A stretch of DNA of 64,000 nt from Ruminococcus sp. Lineage in GTDB: Bacteria > Bacillota > Clostridia > Oscillospirales > Ruminococcaceae. Below the pieces are notes generated by a model. It saw nothing but the letters and a program-made list of their open reading frames with translations, searched no databases and had not been told where the DNA came from. This document shows, piece after piece, positions 2,304 to 28,084 of this stretch. The position numbers and the translations under genes are program-made. Every line of letters begins with the position of its first letter. The first letter of the stretch is position 1. The DNA lies in assembly GCA_021199305.1 (NCBI GenBank), contig JAJQIH010000037.1, forward strand, positions 1 through 64,000, written 5' to 3'.

Positions 2304-2408
2304 AGAAAGAAAGGTTTCTTAAGAAATCCCTCCGCTTGTTTACGGCGTCTTTTATGGCGAAGTAAAATTACAAAACGGAGGGATTTTTTAATTTTTTAGG
2401 TGACTCAT

Positions 2409-4961
2409 ATGAAAAAAATATTGTGTTCAATATTGTCATTTGCCATAATGTGTATGTTGTTCAGCTCTATTATACCTGCGTATGCGGACGATTATTTGAC
2501 TGAAGGGGATTGGACATATTCGGAAGAGGGATCTCTAAGAGGATACAATGGTACGGTTGTTGAAAACTTGACCTTACCGACACAGCTAGGCGGTGTTACC
2601 TTAACGGGCACCGCCTATACTTTTTATAATAATGGTTCATCATATAACTTTAATAACGAAGTTGTTTCTGTAATAATACCGGAAGGCTATACGTTAGTTG
2701 GCACTAACACATTTTATGGATGCACAAAGCTAAAAACCGTGGAGATACCAGAGGGCGTTACAAATATATCAACTTATGCACTGAGGAACTGTGTTTCGCT
2801 GGAAAGCGTCACACTCCCTTATTCTGTTGCTAAACTTATGGGTAGTTGCTTTAGCGGTTGCACAAATGAAAATTTAATTATTGATATCAAAAGAACAGAA
2901 ACCTTCACAACCTTGAACAGCACAGCGTTCTCGAATGTGGTAGGTACTATTTATGTATACTCACAGGAAGTATATGATCAAATTTCAGCAGTAGCTACAA
3001 CGGCAACGGTTATTTTAAAAGAAGAGGAAATAGACACTTCCGAGCTTGAAGCAGCAATTACAGCAGCAGAAGCTATCGATACAAGCGTTTATACAACGGC
3101 AAGCTTAGCGACATTAACCGACGCCGTTACAGCAGGTAAGACAGTTCTTAACAACGAAGACGCAACGCAGACAGAGATTAACAACGCAGCAACAGCTATA
3201 ACCGATGCAATTGATGCGCTCGTAACCCTTTTAGCTGAAGCGATTGAAAACGCAGAGTCGGCAATTGAAGCGGCGGAAATGATTGATACTACAAATTGTA
3301 CAGAGGATAGCGTAGCAGCGTTGACAGCGGCTATAGAAGCGGCAAAAACAGCGATAGCTGACGAATCGGCGACTGCTGATTCAGTTGAAGCGGCTGTAGA
3401 AGCGGTAAACGCGGCAGTAGCAGAGCTTGAAGGCGTAATTTACGTAACCGAAGATGAAGAGCTATACAACTCGATTTCATCAGCGGCAACAAGCGCAACG
3501 GTAATTTATGTAGCAGAGTCAGGTTTAAGCGGTCAGGTTCTGGCTAACATCTATTATGGTGGCAATACGTTATATCAGATTGCAACAGGAACAGCAGGTT
3601 CTGACATTGCAGGAGCGACAAGCGTCAAAGTATACTTTGACTGCGCGTCCGATGTAAGCTACAATCCATATGCATCGATTGATTTATATGCGGTAGTAAA
3701 TTCGACGCAAAACTACGCACAGATTGCAGGAACAGACAGCTCCTACTCGTCAGGTACAACAGGCTGGTCGGAAACTCTGTCGCTTGAAAATGCGATAGCA
3801 GAAGGCGACACATATACAATTTCCGGAGCTACATGGTCATGGAGCGGAGCGGAAGATTACGTATATGCAGTAACTAAGGTAGAGTTTTTGGATGACTCTG
3901 GCGCTGTACTGGCAACAATTGACCCGAACGTAGCTAACGACCTGACAGAGTTAAAGGCAGCGATAGTAGAAGCTGACGCCGTTGACGAAACAGTTTATAC
4001 AGACAACAGCGTAGCTACAATGAATGAAGCTCTCGCAGCAGCTATAACAGTTATTGGTAACGCAGATGCAACTCAGGATGAAGTTGACGCAGCAACAGCA
4101 GCTTTGACAGCAGCAATTGCTGGCCTTGTTGACACTTCAGACCTTGAGGGAACAATCGCAACAGCGGAAGATATTGATACGTCGGCGTTTACGCCATCGA
4201 GCGTAGCGGCAATGACCGAAGCACTTGAAAGTGCAAAGGAAACGCTTGCAAACGCAGACGTAACACAGGACGAAGTAAATGCGGCGGTAGATGCTCTGAC
4301 AGAAGCGATTAACGGCTTGACAGAGCTTGCTGACACAACAGATCTTGTAACTGCAATCGCAGATGCTGAGACAGTTGATGCAACCCTTTACACATCTTCA
4401 AGCGTAGCTGACTTAACAGCAGCACTCGAAGACGCAAAGACAGTTCTTGACAATGCAGATGCAACTCAGGACGAAGTTGATGCAGCAGCATCAGCTTTGA
4501 CAAGCGCAATCAACTCACTTGTAAGCGCATACTCGATAACTGGTACTGTATACGTTTCAGATTCTGATACAGAAACGACAATGACAGTAGCAGTAACTCT
4601 TGCAGATGGCACAGAGGTTTCAGCAGAAGCTACAAGTATGGGTGAGTACGCAATTGAAGGCTTGGATGCAGGCACTTACACAATCACAATCAGTGGTGGT
4701 AAATATGCTCCAAGAAGCTATGAAGTTGAAGTTTCGGAAAGCCTGACACAGGACGTTTACTTAAATCCATACGGAGATGTAAACGGTGACGGCAATGTAA
4801 CAACAGCAGATGTTGGACTTGCAAATAGCCATGCAAAGAACGTTACACTTCTTGAAGATTACGAATTTGTTTGCGCAGACGTAAATCTTGACGGAAGCGT
4901 AACAACAGCAGACGTTGGAAAGATCAACAGTCATGCTAAGGGCGTAGTAGCTCTATGGTAA
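2409..4961 (+). CDS. Secreted cellulosomal scaffold-like protein: BspA-type leucine-rich repeats, about 6-7 FIVAR helical repeats, CarboxypepD_reg-like domain and C-terminal type-I dockerin
   Basis: Signal peptide; LRR segment (VVSVIIPEGYTLVGTNTFYGCTKLKTVEIPEGVTNIS...); repeated 60-65 aa units with YT..S...L..A...AK..L.N.DATQ.EVDAA..AL..AI..L (FIVAR pattern); duplicated Ca-binding dockerin segments DVNGDGNVTTADV and DVNLDGSVTTADV at the C-terminus. Start moved to ATG 2409 (GGTGA 6 nt upstream). Confidence 0.75.
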   Translation: MKKILCSILSFAIMCMLFSSIIPAYADDYLTEGDWTYSEEGSLRGYNGTVVENLTLPTQLGGVTLTGTAYTFYNNGSSYNFNNEVVSVIIPEGYTLVGTNTFYGCTKLKTVEIPEGVTNISTYALRNCVSLESVTLPYSVAKLMGSCFSGCTNENLIIDIKRTETFTTLNSTAFSNVVGTIYVYSQEVYDQISAVATTATVILKEEEIDTSELEAAITAAEAIDTSVYTTASLATLTDAVTAGKTVLNNEDATQTEINNAATAITDAIDALVTLLAEAIENAESAIEAAEMIDTTNCTEDSVAALTAAIEAAKTAIADESATADSVEAAVEAVNAAVAELEGVIYVTEDEELYNSISSAATSATVIYVAESGLSGQVLANIYYGGNTLYQIATGTAGSDIAGATSVKVYFDCASDVSYNPYASIDLYAVVNSTQNYAQIAGTDSSYSSGTTGWSETLSLENAIAEGDTYTISGATWSWSGAEDYVYAVTKVEFLDDSGAVLATIDPNVANDLTELKAAIVEADAVDETVYTDNSVATMNEALAAAITVIGNADATQDEVDAATAALTAAIAGLVDTSDLEGTIATAEDIDTSAFTPSSVAAMTEALESAKETLANADVTQDEVNAAVDALTEAINGLTELADTTDLVTAIADAETVDATLYTSSSVADLTAALEDAKTVLDNADATQDEVDAAASALTSAINSLVSAYSITGTVYVSDSDTETTMTVAVTLADGTEVSAEATSMGEYAIEGLDAGTYTITISGGKYAPRSYEVEVSESLTQDVYLNPYGDVNGDGNVTTADVGLANSHAKNVTLLEDYEFVCADVNLDGSVTTADVGKINSHAKGVVALW

Positions 4962-20533: not shown

Positions 20534-21286
20534 GTGCAAATGGATAAAGATGTGAAAACCATTGACCTGAAAAACATATATCAAATGCTTTTGAAGCACA
20601 TAAAATTCATCATAATCCTTACTCTAGTATGTGGTGTTCTGGCGTACATTATTTCCGCATTTTTCATCACTAAGGAATACACTTCAAGCGTTATGTTATA
20701 TGTTCAGTCCAATGAAGAAATTTCTTCAGACACATCCTCAGGCTCAGTAAGCTACAGCGACCTGCAAACCTCTGAAAAGCTTGCAAGTACCTGTCAGACA
20801 CTTTTTACGAGCAAGAAGATGACAAGCCTTATACTTGAGGACCTGGCTGAGGACTATAACGTAACACAGTATTCTGACGCCAGTGTTCAGAGCTGGATTA
20901 CTGTAACGGCTGTTGAGGATACTTCAATTCTTGAAGTAAGCGTTACAACAACCGACCCTGACCTTTCCGCCGCAGTGGCGCAAAGCCTTGATTTAAACGC
21001 TCATGAGGTTTATTCCTCGATTGTTGAATCGGGCGTTGTAAAGGAAGTTGTTCAGGCTGAGGTTCCTACCTCTCATTCCTACCCGAACATTCCAAGAAAT
21101 ACACTTTTAGGACTTGTAGTAGGATTTGTTTTAGGCTGTGCAATTATTATCATTCTTGAAATGGTTGACAACAAGATCAAGCCGAACGATGATTTGCTTG
21201 CAATGTACGGTATTCCAATGTTTGCTGAAATTGTTGACTTTGACGCTAATATAAAAGGAGGTTATAACTATGAGTACAAAAACTAA
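20534..21286 (+). CDS. Capsular polysaccharide chain-length determinant (Wzz/CpsC-like transmembrane modulator)
   Basis: N-terminal TM, Wzz-like region YTSSVMLYVQ, second TM near the C-terminus. Confidence 0.7.
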   Translation: MQMDKDVKTIDLKNIYQMLLKHIKFIIILTLVCGVLAYIISAFFITKEYTSSVMLYVQSNEEISSDTSSGSVSYSDLQTSEKLASTCQTLFTSKKMTSLILEDLAEDYNVTQYSDASVQSWITVTAVEDTSILEVSVTTTDPDLSAAVAQSLDLNAHEVYSSIVESGVVKEVVQAEVPTSHSYPNIPRNTLLGLVVGFVLGCAIIIILEMVDNKIKPNDDLLAMYGIPMFAEIVDFDANIKGGYNYEYKN

Positions 21287-22034
21287 AAAGTCCTCCGACG
21301 CTAAGTTAAGACAATCAAAATCTCAGTCGAGAAAGTATATTTTAAACGACGGTACCAAGTTTATTATTACCGAAGCGTATAACACAGCGAGAACCAATCT
21401 TATCTTTGCGCTTTCACAAACGGATAATAAGGCGATTTCTTTTACCTCTTCAGGCTCTGCGGAGGGAAAGAGTACAACCTGTCTTAATATGGCGATTACA
21501 TTCGCTTCAACCGGCGCTAAGGTACTGCTTATTGATATGGACCTTAGAAAGCCTGTACAGCATTCGCTGCTAAAGATAAATCGTTCTGTCGGAACAAGCA
21601 CCATTCTTAGCGGTCAATGCACCGTTTCAGAAGCAATCGTCAAGGAGGTAAGACCTAACCTTGACGTTATTCCTGCCGGACCTATTCCGCCAAACCCGTC
21701 GGAAATCTTGTCCTCACCAAATACAGGAAAGCTTATCGAGGTTCTTCGCTCTCATTACGATTATATTCTGATTGACACACCTCCTGTAAATGTTGTTACC
21801 GACTCTCAGCTTTTAAACAACTATATCGCAGGAACAGTATTTATCCTCAGAGATAATTATTCAAGACACAATGAACTTGCAAGAGCGCTTGAGCAGATCA
21901 AGCTTGCTAACGGAAAGGTTTTAGGCTTTATTAAAACTGCTTGCGAGGTTTCAGGCGGTTCCGGTTATTACAAGAAGAGCTACTACAATTACAACTATTC
22001 ATATTCTGAGCCTGCCGACCATAAGCATTCCTAG
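21270..22034 (+). CDS. BY-kinase (CpsD/CapB-type tyrosine protein kinase)
   Basis: Walker A SSGSAEGKSTT; LLIDMDLRKP; C-terminal tyrosine cluster YYKKSYYNYNYSYS; 17-nt overlap with the upstream gene. Confidence 0.8.
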   Translation: MSTKTKKSSDAKLRQSKSQSRKYILNDGTKFIITEAYNTARTNLIFALSQTDNKAISFTSSGSAEGKSTTCLNMAITFASTGAKVLLIDMDLRKPVQHSLLKINRSVGTSTILSGQCTVSEAIVKEVRPNLDVIPAGPIPPNPSEILSSPNTGKLIEVLRSHYDYILIDTPPVNVVTDSQLLNNYIAGTVFILRDNYSRHNELARALEQIKLANGKVLGFIKTACEVSGGSGYYKKSYYNYNYSYSEPADHKHS

Positions 22035-22067
22035 TAGCGAGGCTAAAAGCTTAAAAGAAGTGGTATT

Positions 22068-22784
22068 ATGATTATTGATTTTCATTCCCATATTTTGCCG
22101 TCACTTGACGACGGCTCGGCGTCTGTTGAGGAGTCGGTTAGGCTGCTTGATATTTTAGCTCAAAGTGGTACTGAGCTGGTAGTTGCGACGCCGCACTTTT
22201 ACTGCCACGAAATTTCAGCTGAAAGATTTTTGGCGGCAAGGAATGAATCTTTTGAACGCTTGAAGCCGCACCTGAAGCCGAACCATCCGAAAATTCTGCT
22301 CGGCGCAGAGGTTTTGTTTTCAAGCGAGCTTAAAAAATTAAGCGAGCTTAAAAAGCTCACCATTCAGGGTACCAATTATTTGCTGCTTGAAATGCCATAT
22401 ATCAGGCTTTCAAAGCAGATTACAGACAGCGTTTCGGAGCTTGCAGATTCGGGCGTTGTAAAGCTTCTGATAGCTCACGTTGAGCGGTATTTGAACTTTA
22501 CAAGCTTTGAGGACGTAGACGAGCTGATGTCGCTTGACGTTTTAGGTCAGCTTAACGCAAATTCGTTTTTAAGCTTTAAGACCAAAAGAAACTGCTTCAA
22601 GCTGATGAACAAGGGTTATATTCAGGTGCTCGGAAGCGATATTCACCACGAGGACAGAGGTAAGCCTGTTTCGATGGCGCTCGATATAATTTCCAAAAAA
22701 TACGGAAGCGAACGAGTAGCGCAATTTGAAAGCAGCGGCATAAAGCTTTTAAACGATATGGAAACCTACGAAGTAATGGAATAA
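22068..22784 (+). CDS. PHP-family tyrosine-protein phosphatase (CpsB/YwqE type)
   Basis: MIIDFHSHILPSLDDGS...ATPHF. Confidence 0.8.
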   Translation: MIIDFHSHILPSLDDGSASVEESVRLLDILAQSGTELVVATPHFYCHEISAERFLAARNESFERLKPHLKPNHPKILLGAEVLFSSELKKLSELKKLTIQGTNYLLLEMPYIRLSKQITDSVSELADSGVVKLLIAHVERYLNFTSFEDVDELMSLDVLGQLNANSFLSFKTKRNCFKLMNKGYIQVLGSDIHHEDRGKPVSMALDIISKKYGSERVAQFESSGIKLLNDMETYEVME

Positions 22785-22791
22785 TAAATCA

Positions 22792-22827
22792 AAATATCCC
22801 CCGCCAACAGCAGGGGATATTTTTTTA
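22792..22827 (+). terminator. Intrinsic terminator after the cps module
   Basis: aatatccccc...ggggatattttttt. Confidence 0.6.
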
Positions 22828-22830
22828 CTG

Positions 22831-22871
22831 AAAAACCGCTATGAGAGGTAAATCCCATAGCGGTAATTTTT
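22831..22871 (-). terminator. Terminator for the convergent GGDEF gene
   Basis: ccgctatg...catagcgg hairpin with flanking T-run on the minus strand. Confidence 0.5.
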
Positions 22872-22873
22872 GT

Positions 22874-24775
22874 CTATTCAGTTTCAGTTCGCTTGTGCCG
22901 GTCTGGTTTTGAAAACTTATTGACATACATCAGTTCGTCTGCAATTCTTTCAAGCTGGTTAAGCGTTGTATTCTTGTCAATGTCGCATACAACATAACCG
23001 GTAGAAGCCGCTACCTTGTATTTGTTATTGTTGGCAAGATTATATCTGTCGAGATACTTTTCAAACTGACTGATAGTTTCCTTAACGACCGTGTCGTTGT
23101 AGTCGCCGTAGCCGATAACCATAAATTCGTCACCGCCGACCCTTGCGCAAATCTCATTGCTAAGACAAACGTAGCTCAGACCGTTTGCAATAATTCTGAG
23201 CGATACGTCGCCTTCAAGATGTCCGAAGGTGTCGTTTACGTACTTAAGTCCGTCCATATCGCAGGATATAAGCATAAGCTTTTTTCCGGTTTCCTTAGCC
23301 GCTTGCATAAACTCATCAGCGTATTTTTCAAAACCGCTTCGGTTGTAAATGCCAGTAAGCTTATCCTTGATTGAATTTAAATATGTGATGCGGTTTAAGC
23401 TTTCAAGACAGATTCTTACACGTCTGAATTCTATAGCGTTTGTAACCGCCTTGTGCCAATCCCAGAAGGTTCTTCCGCAAACGTCTACGTGACCGTCGTA
23501 CCATACAACAGAGTAGCCTAAGCATCTGTCGTTAAAGTGAACAGGGAAGAAGTAGTAGATGCTTGAATAATCCTTTTCCTCCCACATCAGCGGGTAAATC
23601 TCGTTGGGGTCAAAATCAAAGCGTTCCTCTAAGTCCTTGCAAACCGACTGTACAACCTTTCCATAGCCTTTTGTGATATAATTTTCATCGCTTGCCATAG
23701 AATCCCAATCCTTGCAAAGGCAAAGATCGTACTTGCATTCCTTCTTGCCGGCAGCGAAGGTGTAAATCGTCTGTCCAAGATAGGTGATAAAGTCGTTGAA
23801 GGTATCGGTTCTTGAAAGGTTTTCAAAAACGTTAGCCGTTCTGAAATACTCACGTCTGTTTTGCTCGATTCTTGTATTCTGACGCATGATTCTGACTTTT
23901 GTAGAATTGTCTTCAAGACAGCCGCAGCTTTCGCCACGAATAACAAAGCCAGAGTGCAGATTAATCGTTTCACATTTCTTTCCAGTCATCAGCTCGTAAA
24001 GCTTGGAAAAACCGTCTGCGCCAAGCTGAGCGTCAGGACCCTTATATGTACAGATTGTAGGTACGTTATCTCTTGATTCGGTAATTCCGTCATAGCCAAC
24101 TACTGCTATTTCTTCAGGAACCTTGTGACCAAGCTCTGTAAATCTTTCGATGAAAAACATTGCCATTCTGTCGTTTGCGCAAACGAGCGCCTGCGGAACA
24201 GCCATTTCACCTCTGTCCATTTTCTCCGCTAAATCCCACGCAACGTCGCTCCAGTAGTCGCCGTAAATGCAATGATCCTCCCGTACCTCAATGTTATGCT
24301 CTCTCAGAGTTTCCTTATAAGCTTCAAGTCGCTCCTCCGCCTGGAAGGTATCCTTTCTTCCTGTCAGGCACATAATATCGGTAAGTCCGTGAACGTCAAT
24401 AAGGTGGTTGACAACCTCTTTGAAAGGCTGCCTTTCATCTCTCAATACTGCAGTATAGTCAGTTTCATCATTATCTATTGTAACGACAGGCTTGCCTGTT
24501 GATTTTAAAATATCAGAAATCTGCTGCCGCATATCAGAGTCGTTAAACATAGCAGCAGGGTATAAAAATCCGTCAAATTTATCAGCGTTTATAAGGCTGA
24601 AAATATTCATTTCCCCTTCGTGGTAGTCCTTGTTGTATGTGTTTTCGTCAAACACGCAAAAAACCGCAACATCATAGTCCATTTTGAAAGCCTGCGTTGC
24701 TGCACCCTCTATAATCTCTCTCGGGTACGCTTCGTCAATGCTCCTCGCTACGATGCCGATACAAGGTCTTTTCAA
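22874..24775 (-). CDS. Diguanylate cyclase with N-terminal periplasmic-binding-protein/LacI-like sugar-sensor domain
   Basis: C-terminal GGDEF domain (RVGGDEFMVI, GIYNRSGF...DMDGLKYVND); N-terminal PBP-like fold (IGIVARSIDEAYPREI...). Confidence 0.75.
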   Translation of the reverse strand: MKRPCIGIVARSIDEAYPREIIEGAATQAFKMDYDVAVFCVFDENTYNKDYHEGEMNIFSLINADKFDGFLYPAAMFNDSDMRQQISDILKSTGKPVVTIDNDETDYTAVLRDERQPFKEVVNHLIDVHGLTDIMCLTGRKDTFQAEERLEAYKETLREHNIEVREDHCIYGDYWSDVAWDLAEKMDRGEMAVPQALVCANDRMAMFFIERFTELGHKVPEEIAVVGYDGITESRDNVPTICTYKGPDAQLGADGFSKLYELMTGKKCETINLHSGFVIRGESCGCLEDNSTKVRIMRQNTRIEQNRREYFRTANVFENLSRTDTFNDFITYLGQTIYTFAAGKKECKYDLCLCKDWDSMASDENYITKGYGKVVQSVCKDLEERFDFDPNEIYPLMWEEKDYSSIYYFFPVHFNDRCLGYSVVWYDGHVDVCGRTFWDWHKAVTNAIEFRRVRICLESLNRITYLNSIKDKLTGIYNRSGFEKYADEFMQAAKETGKKLMLISCDMDGLKYVNDTFGHLEGDVSLRIIANGLSYVCLSNEICARVGGDEFMVIGYGDYNDTVVKETISQFEKYLDRYNLANNNKYKVAASTGYVVCDIDKNTTLNQLERIADELMYVNKFSKPDRHKRTETE

Positions 24776-25399
24776 GAGAATTCCCTCCTTTACAAAAGAG
24801 TGACACGATACCGATTTAACAATTTAAACCAGTAAACGCAATTCTTCATACTACTTCCAATTATATCACATTTACGCCTGTAATTTATTAACAGAAAATT
24901 AACATTGTGTAATTTCACGTTAATTATTAAAATTGTTTAACTTAAACTTCTTACGAAATCTGATTTTGCAGAAAATCTAGAGCCTTTCGGCTTTAAAGCC
25001 TCCCTTCAGATCCTGATAAACAAATTATACCACAAAAGCCTGAAAACTGCAATCAGTTTACGGGTAGCACAAACAAAAATGCCTCCCGCTAAATAAGCGG
25101 AAGACATATTTTTCTACAAAAAATCCACCTTGCCGTCACATAGTATGATAAAACCCGCACTCAGGCAGGTGGGTAACGGCCTGCTTGTTTCATGATCCCC
25201 TCGTCCCATAAGGATTTCTCGGCACAAAGCAAAAGCTTTGGCGGAGCCTCAGAGGAGGGCCTTCAATCCTCAACCAGAGCTTGGTCCCCTTAATAAATGT
25301 GTTGGATTTATAAAAAACTATGATTGCTCGAACAAGGCAGAAAATTCACAAATATATTGTTTGCAAAGGGTGAAATGTTATTCACGGGATTTGCAAAAA

Positions 25400-25732
25400 T
25401 CAGTTGTCCTCATGACTGTGACAATCGCAATCATCGTCGTCACATTCTTCTTCGTACATATCCTCAAGAATCGACATAAAAATCTCGCCGACTTTATCGA
25501 AGGTTTCGTCGTCGTCAACCGAAACCAGGATTTCCTCGTCGTCCTCGTAAGTGCTTTTGAGAATAACCAATAAGCCGTCGTCGTCAACAGCTTCATCAGG
25601 ATTTGCGTAATAGGGGGTCATTGCGTAATAAACGTCGCCCTCGTATTCTGTCTCAGCCAGAACCTCAAATGTCTGTTCTTTTCCGTCCTCGTCAATAAGA
25701 GTGTATAGGTCGGGTGCGTATTCACTTGGCAT
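25400..25732 (-). CDS. DUF1292-family acidic protein
   Basis: Very acidic; pattern LIDEDGKEQTFEVL...GDVYYAM; start at MPSEY (GGAGG 7 nt upstream). Confidence 0.6.
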   Translation of the reverse strand: MPSEYAPDLYTLIDEDGKEQTFEVLAETEYEGDVYYAMTPYYANPDEAVDDDGLLVILKSTYEDDEEILVSVDDDETFDKVGEIFMSILEDMYEEECDDDDCDCHSHEDN

Positions 25733-25875
25733 AATAAATCCTCCTGTAAATGAAAATTGTGAAAAGAATTTTTTCACCGCAACATATACATTATACTATA
25801 TAATGTGAATGAAGTCAAGCAGATTTTGTGAAAGTAATGTTAAATAAAAAAGTTTGAAAATTTTGAGAAAAACTG

Positions 25876-25904
25876 TTGACATTGCACAAAAAGTGTGGTA
25901 TATT
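25876..25904 (+). promoter_or_regulatory. Strong sigma-A promoter TTGACA-17-(TGg)TATATT driving a non-coding unit
   Basis: Perfect -35, 17-nt spacer, extended -10. Confidence 0.6.
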
Positions 25905-26263
25905 ATAGACAAGGAAAAGAGAAGAAAGGTGATGATGAGTATGAAAGCTTATTATCTGACATCTATCCGAATTATCAAATGAGAAAGGGGCGAGTCCAAT
26001 GGCAATAGAAGAATCATCAAAGTCATCTTTCCTGAGTGACTCGGTGAAATTGTAAGAAGCTTAGAACTCAGACGGTAAGAGCTGATAAAGCTTGAGGAAT
26101 TAAAAGAAAAATAATCACGAGTTATTTGGGCAAGAACTTTGATATAGGACACTATCCGTGAAGACGGAGCAAAAACTAGCTAAGTAATATGAATTTGGAC
26201 ATGAATTCATAAAGTCGGGAGGGGATTAAACCATTCTATTTAAGCTTTTAACCGACACGAAAT

Positions 26264-26450
26264 TTTAAAAGGAAGTACAGTCCAATGAAGTAAGACAGGC
26301 TTTTAAGAAGCAATTAAAGGATTTAAAATTTTAAGAAATCAGGTACAGTCCAATGAAGTAAGTAAGCTTTGTAACAGGATTTATGAGATTTGAAATTTTA
26401 GAAAACAGGTACGGTCCAATGAAATAATTAGTTTTTGGAAAATTTAATAT
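26264..26450 (+). repeat. Three tandem ~67-bp repeats with conserved core GTACRGTCCAATGAAGTAA (cores at 26275, 26344, 26409)
   Basis: Seen directly; each core contains a minimal ATG-AAG-TAA reading frame; a degenerate copy (agtccaatgg) lies at about 25993. Confidence 0.8.
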
Positions 26451-26462
26451 CCAGATAAATCG

Positions 26463-26499
26463 GAAAAGTCAGGCAAAGCGTCCTGACTTTTCTTTTTTG
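26463..26499 (+). terminator. Intrinsic terminator
   Basis: aaagtcaggcaaagcgtcctgacttt followed by TCTTTTTTG. Confidence 0.7.
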
Positions 26500-26546
26500 T
26501 AATGCTTTGTTGCATTTGCAAAATACAAAAATAAGACTCTTTGCAG

Positions 26547-26575
26547 TTGACTTTTTCGGCTGAGTATTGTATAAT
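26547..26575 (+). promoter_or_regulatory. Promoter TTGACT-17-TATAAT for the lipoprotein gene
   Basis: Sequence match; about 150-nt leader follows. Confidence 0.55.
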
Positions 26576-26725
26576 CAAATAATGATGTCACTTTGCTTCT
26601 GGCAAGGGACTATCGCAATCTTTGCTGGGGAATATCCCCACTGAAATTCAGCGAGCAGTTTTGGCCGACTTATAAACCACAAACCGCTTCGCTTTAAAAT
26701 GTAAATAATACAGGGAGGCATTACG

Positions 26726-28084
26726 ATGCTAAAAAAGAAGATTGTTGCAGTTTTGTGTGCAGCGGCAATGGTGATAGGGTTTACCGGCTGTACTGATATG
26801 TCTAAGATTATGACTGTCGAGGGCGAGGAACTTAACGCCGGAGTATATATTTTCAATATGCTGTCCGATTACACCGTTCAAGCTTACTACGCTAGTTATT
26901 TTTCAAGCGATGACAGCGACACGGCTTTCTTGGATCAGGAATACGACGACGGCGTAACCTACAGCGAGTATTTTCTTGATTCTGCTATGGAGCAGACATT
27001 AAGAGGCGTTGCAGCGGACAAGCTGTTCAAGGACGCAGGACTTGAGCTTTCAGACGACGACAAGGAAGAAATTGCTGACAGCGTTGAACAGGCAATGGAA
27101 GGCTACGGCGAGGATTACCTGAGCGCTCAGGGAATCTCAGAGGAATCTGTTGAAATTTGCTACACTTACGATAAGGAAATGGAGCTTCTGTTTGACTACT
27201 ACTACGCTGAAGGCGGTACAGAGGAAGTAACAGATGAGGATATTCAGACATACCTTGGTGAAAACTACTTGAGATACAAGATGATTTCAATTTCAAGAGC
27301 GCCAGAATCGACCGAAGACGAAGAAGCAACAGACGAGGAAATCGAAGCGGCTGAGGAAGAAGCAAAGGCTTTGGCTGACAAGTATCTGGAGCTTGCTGAA
27401 GAAGGCGGAGCTGACGGCTTTGACGATGTAATCGCTCAATATGAGGAAGAAACAGCAGAGGAAGATACGGACGACGACGATTCAACCGATGAGGAAGAGG
27501 AAGAGGACGATACCGAGATTGATACTACTGCTGAGTATACAGTAACTTTCGTTGACGGCGACGGAGAAGAGTACGACGAGGATTCAGATTATCCGCCAAT
27601 TACTGTAAACGGCGGAGATACAATCACCAAGCCTGAAACTGACCCTGAAAAGACCTACTATCTGTTCGACGGCTGGTATGCTGATTCTTACGGTTCAACA
27701 GAATTTGACTTTGACGAGCCTATAACTGCTGATACAACAGTTTATGCTTGCTTCTCAACAAACGAAGTTCTGACAACTTATGATGAGGACAGCGCAAGCG
27801 ACATTCAGACAACCATAAACGAAATGGAAATTACAGGTACGCCTGTTTTAGAGTCTGACGACGATTATTACTACATCATCTTAAAGCTCGATCCGAGCGA
27901 GAGAGAAGATTATATGGCTGGCGGAACTAACCACGACAGCATAATCACAACAATGAAGACAGACGAGTTTAACGAGCGACTTGACGACACCGCAGATTCA
28001 ATGGATATTGATACTAACGACAAGGCGGTAGACAAGTACACACCAGAAAAGATTGAAGAAATTGCTGAGGAATACTCTGAGTAA
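26726..28084 (+). CDS. Highly acidic lipoprotein with a Listeria-Bacteroides (Flg_new) repeat domain
   Basis: Lipobox VIGFTGC; D/E-rich; YTVTFVDGDGEE...KTYYLFDGWYADSYGST..FDFDEPITADTTVYACF. Confidence 0.6.
   Translation: MLKKKIVAVLCAAAMVIGFTGCTDMSKIMTVEGEELNAGVYIFNMLSDYTVQAYYASYFSSDDSDTAFLDQEYDDGVTYSEYFLDSAMEQTLRGVAADKLFKDAGLELSDDDKEEIADSVEQAMEGYGEDYLSAQGISEESVEICYTYDKEMELLFDYYYAEGGTEEVTDEDIQTYLGENYLRYKMISISRAPESTEDEEATDEEIEAAEEEAKALADKYLELAEEGGADGFDDVIAQYEEETAEEDTDDDDSTDEEEEEDDTEIDTTAEYTVTFVDGDGEEYDEDSDYPPITVNGGDTITKPETDPEKTYYLFDGWYADSYGSTEFDFDEPITADTTVYACFSTNEVLTTYDEDSASDIQTTINEMEITGTPVLESDDDYYYIILKLDPSEREDYMAGGTNHDSIITTMKTDEFNERLDDTADSMDIDTNDKAVDKYTPEKIEEIAEEYSE

Follow-up and report, generated by a model that had tools for sequence, protein, structure and literature searches.

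The region described here occupies positions 25876-26499 of a 64,000-nt stretch of contig JAJQIH010000037.1 (Ruminococcus sp., assembly GCA_021199305.1), this whole stretch being referred to below as the window. It is divergent from a gene for a protein of the DUF1292 family and probably specifies a stand-alone, strongly transcribed RNA of approx. 590 nt, as judged from its signals (Table 1). An initial annotation of the window had recognised a near-consensus promoter and a strong intrinsic terminator bracketing this span, and both were recovered by scanning; transcription would start near position 25911, and the terminator-like hairpin (26462-26493) has 12 pairs followed by TTTTTTG. The predicted fold of the RNA is better than that of shuffled sequences (z = -4.2). 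Comparison with relatives shows that the predicted transcription unit is conserved: the -35 and -10 elements and much of the spacer between them are kept down to approx. 55% DUF1292 identity, and a terminator is found at the equivalent relative position with a different sequence. The promoter spacer contains a palindrome, CACAAAAAGTGTG (25885-25897), conserved as far as locus L018 and partly in L020, which may be an operator, since the spacers of promoters are normally not conserved. A further sequence upstream of the promoter, ATGTTAAATAAAAAA (25835-25849), is conserved too.

No long open reading frame (ORF) was found on the forward strand between promoter and terminator. The absence of any ORF of 60 or more amino acids, as initially annotated, thus holds for this strand and fails for the reverse one, on which a GTG-initiated ORF of 66 amino acids extends over 25952-26152. 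This antisense frame is not conserved and was taken as spurious, because L022, whose genome is the nearest one found (DUF1292 97% identical), has no antisense ORF longer than 31 amino acids. There is no conserved long ORF on either strand.

Table 1. Features of the RNA locus and of its divergent neighbours in the window
Feature	Position	Strand	Remarks
6S RNA gene	25118..25346	-	Rfam RF00013, 65.9 bits; directly downstream of DUF1292
DUF1292 gene	25400..25732	-	110 amino acids; Pfam PF06949, E = 2.7e-16; divergent from the RNA
DUF1292 promoter	25818-25790	-	
RNA promoter	25876..25904	+	Scan: 11/12 consensus matches, TTGACA-17-TATATT with extended -10 TG
Promoter elements	25876-25881 (-35); 25896-25904 (extended -10)	+	TTGACA; 17-nt spacer; TGgTATATT
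Short ORF 1 (sORF1)	25932/25941..25982	+	MMSMKAYYLTSIRIIK-stop (MKAYYLTSIRIIK); 13-16 codons
Core domain	25978..26098	+	Covariance model R1: 93.5 bits, E = 6e-18, sole match in 64 kb
sORF2 initiation region	25983..26001	+	GAAAGGGG-CGAGUCCA-AUG; starts directly 3' of the sORF1 stop
Helix H1	25991-25996 with 26038-26043	+	CGAGUC with GACUCG
sORF2	25999..26055	+	MAIEESSKSSFLSDSVKL-stop; 18 codons; reads through the 3' strand of H1
Helix H3	26057-26062 with 26088-26093	+	AAGCUU with AAGCUU
Helix H2	26068-26071 with 26082-26085	+	Invariant stem; UCAG with CUGA
Conserved block	26215..26258	+	UCGGGAGGGGAUUAAACC...AAGCUUUUAACCGACA; precedes the array; clade alignment
Repeat unit 1	26259..26326	+	AAGGAAGUACAGUCCA-AUG AAG UAA; mini-ORF 26285-26293
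Repeat unit 2	26327..26392	+	CAGGUACAGUCCA-AUG AAG UAA; mini-ORF 26353-26361
Repeat unit 3	26393..26461	+	CAGGUACGGUCCA-AUG AAA UAA; mini-ORF 26419-26427
Intrinsic terminator	26462..26499	+	GGAAAAGUCAGG-CAAAGCGU-CCUGACUUUUCU and U-run; terminator scan

The part of the RNA preceding the terminator consists of three tandem units of 66-68 nt, reported by Tandem Repeats Finder as one array (26259-26427, period 66, 2.5 copies, 79% matches). Their 19-nt core, GTACRGTCCAATGAARTAA, had already been noticed and does occur exactly three times (at 26275, 26343 and 26409), where shuffled sequences would be expected to give 0.04 matches even with up to three mismatches allowed. Some details of the initial annotation needed correction: start-to-start distances are 68 and 66 nt, not 69 and 65; the second shared sequence placed approx. 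30 nt after each core, GATTTRAAATTTT, follows units 1 (26320-26332) and 2 (26387-26399) but not unit 3; and the minimal ORF ATG-AAG-TAA ascribed to every core is present twice, the third being ATG AAA TAA. All three units have the layout of a two-codon minigene, i.e. a start codon preceded by a Shine-Dalgarno (SD)-like element and followed by a single sense codon and a stop. Orthologues of units 1 and 3 were found in 11/11 clade sequences, the mini-ORF being AUG AAG UAA, AUG AAG UAG or AUG UAC UGA in the former and AUG AAA UAA, AUG AGA UAA or AUG AAG UAA in the latter, so that both keep a two-codon ORF throughout the clade with four different sense codons (AAG, AAA, AGA, UAC) and all three stops (UAA, UAG, UGA). 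Unit 2 is a species-specific extra copy, confined to the window and L022; the other clade members have two units. The number of units thus changes through tandem duplication, with 2-3 in the window clade and seven, of approx. 55 nt each, in L033, and the array of L067 has the layout A-B-A-B-A. No consistent helix could be established in the conserved block in front of the array. An insertion of approx. 45 nt (~26150-26195, ...GGACACTATCCGTGAAGACGGAGCAAAAACTAGCTAAGTAATATG...), for which two small hairpins are predicted (GGAC...UCC and CCGU...ACGG), was also seen only in the window and L022.

What is repeated became apparent from the whole family of homologous RNAs. A logo of 468 GUCC sites from 88 distinct RNAs, anchored on GUCC, reads AARGGRGUGA-GUCC-RAUGR, which corresponds to an SD sequence, an 8-nt spacer and AUG; the family-wide repeat core is accordingly SD, the spacer (R)AGUCCR and a start codon. 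Beside the anchored GUCC, the AUG after it stands out most, and the upstream GG is weaker (~60%). ORFs that begin at GUCC-N-AUG are of two lengths, 1-3 or 10-23 codons, with hardly any in between. ORFs of at most three codons begin at 67.5% of the distinct UCCN-AUG sites and, among the remaining AUGs of these RNAs, at 17% (odds ratio 10). In frame 0, 66% of UCCN-AUG sites are followed by a stop within three codons; the figures for frames +1 and +2 are 28% and 8%, respectively. The mini-ORFs comprise 81 distinct strings (e.g., ATGTAA, ATGGCTTGA, ATGAAGTAA and ATGTACTGA), and at 20 sites across the family the AUG of the motif is directly followed by a stop. Since selection keeps the in-frame stop within one to three codons and ignores the identity of the codons, ribosomes appear to act on the modules. 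We therefore read the repeats as putative tandem translation-initiation modules, or 'mini-cistrons', each composed of an SD-like element, the AGUCCR spacer, AUG, one sense codon and a stop; comparison shows that the units resemble initiation sites and that length selection acts on their predicted frames. An array of minimal or short ORFs was among the possibilities first raised for this region, and the stops kept one to three codons after AUG across species, with varying codons, bear it out.

Two further properties of the motif should be mentioned. Its arrangement, SD...RUCC, was considered as a split complement of the whole 3' tail of 16S ribosomal RNA (rRNA); in an ungapped register test of this complementarity, a shift of -1 outscored the exact register, and the idea was kept only as a lead. 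In Staphylococcus aureus, SD pairing is reported to extend into the spacer, where AU or GU near the start codon pairs with 16S rRNA upstream of CCUCC (PMC13009471). The (G/A)UCC of the motif is similarly complementary to the 16S GGAU at roughly that position; unlike in the solved complex, its UCC stands 1 nt from AUG, which is closer, and the likeness is no more than a lead. UCCRAUG was also examined as a general start context of the genome and rejected, being used by no real gene start in the window.

Two longer ORFs precede the array. One of them, sORF1, was missing from the inventory of small ORFs in the initial annotation. Its start is likely the third ATG (25941), giving 13 codons; in the minimum free energy fold this start is placed in the hairpin loop of GAUGAUGAGU/GCUUAUUAUC. 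The ORF stays in frame in 11 clade members, even with a 3-nt deletion, and shows the synonymous exchanges ATT/ATC and CAA/CAG. By its C-terminal pattern it was grouped with a type ending in ...(K/R)RL(N/I)I before the stop, which is widespread in the family and whose RL(N/I)I C-terminus is kept through six Arg codons (CGN/AGR) and four Leu codons (CUN/UUR); the window copy ends in ...SIRIIK. Comparison shows that at least one sORF type, as read from these codon patterns, is under peptide selection. The distance from the stop of sORF1-type ORFs to the UCC of the next GGGGYGAGUCC-type element is also fixed, at 12-15 nt in 62 of 71 cases; in the window this element serves as the sORF2 initiation region. 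It should be noted that an ORF of this type was not seen in some array-bearing members (L100).

The other, sORF2, is the 18-codon ORF noted previously, and its start carries a fourth copy of GTCCAATG. We regard its initiation region, in which GCGAGTCCAATGG is invariant in 7 clade sequences, as the founding member among the copies of the SD-AGUCCR-AUG motif. In 62 of the 88 family sequences, this site opens an ORF of 10-23 codons. Depending on the clade, the conserved GRCUCG within these ORFs encodes DS, RLG or EAR, all three frames being used, from which it follows that the extent of sORF2 is conserved and its C-terminal peptide is not. The longer sORFs thus display conservation of either a coding type or an extent type, in agreement with the short-ORF reading. 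Long members of the family (L018, reverse complement 2330-3320; L037; L033; L083) contain additional recurrent types of sORF, and every type has a conserved SD-spacer of its own, for example GGAGUGUUUCCA-AUG MH(K/N)xSFS... and M..F.R.LNK(F). In these long members the sORF1-type start lies in a hairpin loop (GUGCAAU...AUUGCAC), and consequently its Cys and Thr codons double as stem nucleotides.

The sORF2 region is at the same time part of a structured core domain. Its three helices, H1, H2 and H3, were recovered independently by RNAalifold, and comparison shows that these predicted helices are real. For 29 sequences, the pair counts gave 90% paired and a covariation score of 0.268 versus 0.138 in shuffles (0/500 shuffles as high); with 60 distinct sequences, the score was 0.370 versus 0.170, 12 pairs were changed on both sides and slid controls did not exceed 0.083, although this last set leans toward structure because the alignment was fitted to the model. 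The inner pair C26073-G26079, which extends H2 and closes its loop, is seen as CG, UA or AU across relatives. The loop is a GNRA tetraloop (GAAA, GCAA, GUAA or GGAA) in most of them, and a 5-nt GGUAA in the window. In H1, the CGAGUC spacer belonging to the sORF2 start forms the 5' strand and GRCUCG the 3' strand. The covariance model R1, built on this domain, matched 74 of 100 sources, once each and always on the RNA strand. The covariation among homologous loci that a structured RNA should display, according to the initial annotation, is therefore present in the core domain at levels above shuffles; of its suggestion of a structured or protein-sponge RNA, the structured part stands for the 5' half (25991-26093) and not for the repeats, and the sponge is disfavoured, AUG outweighing GGA in the motif. 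A pseudoknot between the loop of H1 and the region 3' of it, drawn by eye, is plausible in the L018 and L037 clades and was discarded, as it is not conserved in the window clade.

Membership of a family, the species-dependent number of repeats and the linkage to DUF1292 and 6S RNA had not been part of the initial annotation and emerged from comparison. Homologous loci were fetched through DUF1292 orthologues, the nearest database protein being from a Ruminococcus sp. metagenome-assembled genome (MAG). In 13/13 close loci the RNA is found upstream of DUF1292, always divergent, and the intergenic RNA is 74-80% identical; more distant orthologues (55-72% protein identity) are preceded by a gene-free gap of 0.8-1.5 kb with the same motifs. 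When each GTDB species was represented by one genome, a scan yielded 80 loci from MAGs of Ruminococcus, Oscillospiraceae and 'Clostridia', plus two cultured strains of Ruminococcus. Almost all of these approx. 80 loci have a promoter at ~140-250 nt on the strand opposite DUF1292, and in nearly all the RNA strand carries 2-10 AGUCC motifs versus 0-3 GGACU. Promoter-to-terminator lengths range from 433 to 1552 nt (median 785), the window RNA being a short member. A metagenome scan with a pattern derived from the RNA only gave 11 loci, with a divergent DUF1292 gene beside the RNA in 11/11; DUF1292 adjoins the RNA in every locus examined. Matches of the core pattern to viral contigs (n = 16) were unrelated sequence and were taken as chance, since they had no CTGATA partner, AGUCC array or DUF1292 gene. 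The window itself contains everything by which we define the family, namely the R1 core domain, the divergent DUF1292 gene and at least two SD-(R)AGUCCR-AUG modules with ORFs of 1-3 codons, its modules being the three mini-ORF units and the sORF2 start. By sequence comparison, these records indicate that the RNA family is shared by dozens of gut and rumen species of the Ruminococcus type and by related Oscillospiraceae.

Beside DUF1292 stands the gene for 6S RNA, both in the window and in each of the five relatives that were checked (L013, L014, L016, L018 and L020); it shares the strand of DUF1292 in four of these, and in L018 it is on the opposite one. The DUF1292 protein is extremely acidic with a Cys/His-rich tail (ECDDDDCDCHSHEDN), and its AlphaFold model (pLDDT 76.6) consists of a small beta-sheet domain and a long helix. 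Pfam assigns only the DUF, no solved structure was matched by sequence, and a Foldseek search of the model against the PDB returned nothing below E = 0.3. Relative to L001-L012, the RNA/DUF1292/6S block of the window (compared over 20534-26499) is inverted with respect to the cps (wzz-cpsD-cpsB) operon, and a gene with GGDEF and periplasmic-binding domains (22874-24775) stands in place of the helix-turn-helix regulator gene of the closest relatives. The gene that follows the terminator has a promoter of its own in the window, and in relatives it differs and is convergent. The lipoprotein gene at 26726-28084 (forward strand), with a Listeria-Bacteroides repeat domain, has the near-consensus promoter TTGACT-17-TATAAT (region 26547-26725) and a leader of approx. 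150 nt that is GC-richer than its surroundings and has no Rfam match. A 17/19 match to the repeat core, GTTCAGTCCAATGAAGAAA, was detected on the forward strand at 20702-20720 inside a wzz/cpsC-like gene (20534-21286), where it encodes YVQSNEE; window shuffles would be expected to give 0.04 such matches. It was considered as a target or mimic of the RNA, and is probably a chance occurrence, as it has the same orientation as the core and L009-L012 have a complete wzz without it.

The RNA did not match any known family. A search of 24500-27500 against Rfam 15 (E <= 10) gave only chance-level matches in 25876-26499 (best 26.6 bits versus a gathering threshold of 50), at the gathering threshold 6S was the only match in the whole window, and nothing was found within the RNA of five homologous loci at E <= 0.1. 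The families without a genuine match inside the RNA include 6S, OLE, ROOL, GOLLD, raiA, T-box and CsrB/Rsm. Literature searches on DUF1292/6S, large non-coding RNAs (ncRNAs) of Ruminococcus, mini-ORF small RNAs (sRNAs), minigenes, UPF0473/YrzB and ribosome sponges retrieved no description of it in a survey that did not extend to the catalogue of candidate structured RNAs in PMC8040213 (Fremin & Bhatt); one paper retrieved (PMC7580957) proved irrelevant. We consider the family to be undescribed and its architecture unprecedented, and it belongs to none of the systems with which we compared it.

In its way of working the RNA would come closest to two-codon minigenes and start-stop sites, multiplied within a dedicated RNA, and in its layout to a decoy of the CsrB or 6S type. 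When two-codon minigenes are expressed, ribosomes are engaged and tiny peptidyl-tRNAs are released or drop off, which can inhibit translation or affect the activity of genes nearby. Those of lambda barI/barII (AUG-AUA-stop), the Escherichia coli LEE1 leader and axe-txe likewise have an SD and a start codon with a single sense codon before the stop; the known ones are single elements inside phage or operon transcripts, whereas the present RNA is chromosomal, has its own promoter and terminator and carries an array of 2-7 or more units, conserved throughout a bacterial family and with no fixed sense codon. Papers on such minigenes include PMC3262186, PMC8708949 and PMC2490762. Start-stop and mini-ORF sites known from ribosome profiling (E. 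coli Ribo-RET; AUGUAA of plant NIP5;1) share initiation and termination without meaningful elongation, but are isolated cis-regulators in 5' leaders, unlike the window units, in which a sense codon separates start and stop and no downstream gene is regulated. The large ncRNAs of Firmicutes (OLE, ROOL, GOLLD and raiA) are comparable in size (0.43-1.55 kb here), in their restriction to anaerobic Firmicutes and in conserved synteny; no covariance model of theirs matched, and the present RNA is for the most part AU-rich and modular, not densely structured, and supplied with initiation sites.

We tentatively favour, at slightly less than an even chance, the reading that the RNA works through the loading of ribosomes, as a sink or parking RNA with a capacity set by the number of its units, and not through its di- and tripeptide products. 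A ribosome reaching the stop of sORF1 would cover or unwind the 5' strand of H1, 9-14 nt downstream, and thus expose the sORF2 start, so that the two ORFs would be translationally coupled. Further downstream, each mini-cistron would capture one initiating ribosome, whose cycle would be non-productive and very short. Such a sink or parking site would hold initiating ribosomes, initiator tRNA or peptidyl-tRNA. A bolder form of the proposal, which we regard as rather unlikely, is that the RNA is a highly expressed decoy for the translation machinery, the ribosome-side counterpart of 6S RNA, whose mini-cistron arrays would buffer the free ribosome capacity of gut and rumen Ruminococcus by capturing initiating ribosomes in futile cycles or in parked complexes. 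In that case, initiator tRNA and release or recycling factors might be captured too, the input could be gated by the conserved nascent peptide of sORF1, the device could be tuned by unit duplication, and it would be genetically linked to 6S RNA and DUF1292.

Several points weigh against the ribosome-sink reading. The function as a sink is drawn from analogy, and the translation of mini-ORFs and sORFs from sequence conservation. The frame statistics count related sequences, and their p-values overstate independence. Units 2 and 3 of the window have weak SD elements (AGGU). The conserved AGUCC spacer is not accounted for, as it has a cis pair in H1 and no obvious partner in the array units. Finally, approximately one-third of the AGUCC motifs family-wide have no AUG (e.g., GAGUCCAAAGG), because of which the motif must have some role beyond that of a start-site context.

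Another possible explanation, which we consider unlikely, is that the RNA is a messenger for micropeptides: the conserved peptides (sORF1 type, possibly sORF2) would function as such or as arrest peptides sensing a metabolite or antibiotic, and the mini-ORF units would only stabilise the transcript through ribosome binding, or be decayed longer sORFs. The C-terminus of the sORF1 type, kept at the amino-acid level through synonymous codons, the recurrent sORF types of long members and the constant spacing from the sORF1 stop to the initiation region after it all speak for it. In Bacillus, moreover, SD-bound ribosomes protect RNAs from RNase J1 (STAB-SD, hbs). Dual-function sRNAs and leader peptides (RNAIII/hld, SR1/SR1P, SgrS/SgrT; ErmCL, TnaC) are also structured RNAs with short ORFs, and the conserved end of sORF1-type peptides adjoining the stop is what leader peptides, and arrest peptides in particular, display; the RNA described here differs in having many ORFs, mostly of 2-3 codons, no attenuated gene downstream and no known base-pairing target. 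An attenuator acts by alternative structures on a downstream gene in the same transcript, and here the transcript ends at the intrinsic terminator, with neighbours beyond it that vary by species. As no downstream gene is regulated, and arrays occur without a visible sORF1-type ORF, micropeptides are probably not the whole story; furthermore, decayed copies would not have retained in-frame stops at codons 2-4 through 81 sequences.

The frame-specific conservation of the stops weakens the remaining explanations. One of them, somewhat less probable again, is a protein sponge, in which GGAG...AGUCC would be a site for CsrA, a KH-domain protein or DUF1292, titrated as by CsrB/RsmZ, the AUG and stop being by-products of mimicking the initiation regions of targets. 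Like the sponge RNAs (CsrB/RsmY/RsmZ, or 6S as a decoy of RNA polymerase), the RNA stands alone and carries a short, strand-specific motif that is repeated in variable copy number and overlaps an SD-like sequence, and a 6S RNA gene is nearby. The conservation of the spacer beyond what ribosome binding alone explains, the motifs without AUG and the absolute linkage to DUF1292 would also suit a sponge. Triplet-periodic conservation of stops is hard to explain without translation, though, and it is AUG and the in-frame stop that are conserved here, not a hairpin-loop GGA, so that the ligand would be the ribosome. Where CsrB/RsmZ have many GGA, preferably in loops, GGA is not the best-kept part of the present motif and is missing from units 2 and 3, which read CAGGUAC; no Rfam model of these RNAs matched. 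DUF1292 is unlikely to bind RNA, because it is extremely acidic, and it has no fold similarity to RNA-binding proteins. The disuse of UCCRAUG at real gene starts in the window likewise argues against mimicry of targets.

We find it improbable, to a slightly greater degree, that this is a conventional structured or base-pairing ncRNA, acting by its folded core or by single-stranded AGUCC, with incidental small ORFs. Such an RNA would be consistent with the covariation-supported core and its GNRA-capped hairpin in most relatives, with the fold z-score and with the pairing of CGAGUC with GRCUCG in cis; bimodal ORF lengths, frame-specific stops and synonymous-codon conservation would be unexpected if the ORFs were incidental, and no complement of the 8-mer or 19-mer core was found on either strand of the window. 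A feature of the DNA itself or a relic, such as iteron-like repeats that bind protein, a CRISPR-like mini-array or a gene in decay, would fit the tandem direct repeats of 66-68-bp period and is very improbable, given the strand asymmetry of the motif (many AGTCC versus 0-3 GGACT), the promoter and terminator that bracket it, the lack of a conserved long ORF, the conservation in dozens of species with compensatory RNA changes, the inter-core segments, which are 70% identical in units aligning over their full length and hence are not unique spacers, and the absence of cas-like genes from the gene tables of homologous loci.

If the ribosome-sink reading is true, this would be a bacterial RNA built mainly of conserved frames of 2-3 codons, of which we found no described example, and selection could act on initiating and terminating themselves, and not on any product. 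Minigene and start-stop biology has so far been mostly that of phage elements and isolated leader sites, to which a natural, chromosomal and widely conserved example would be added. To our knowledge, RNA regulators are almost unstudied in the fibre-degrading Firmicutes of gut and rumen, and these abundant organisms would gain a large RNA family. Even if the micropeptide or sponge explanation proves correct, the family is new to Rfam, and the alignments and covariance model define it. For DUF1292 (UPF0473/YrzB), a protein found across Firmicutes for which we know of no role, the fixed neighbourhood of mini-ORF RNA, DUF1292 and 6S RNA provides a first functional lead.

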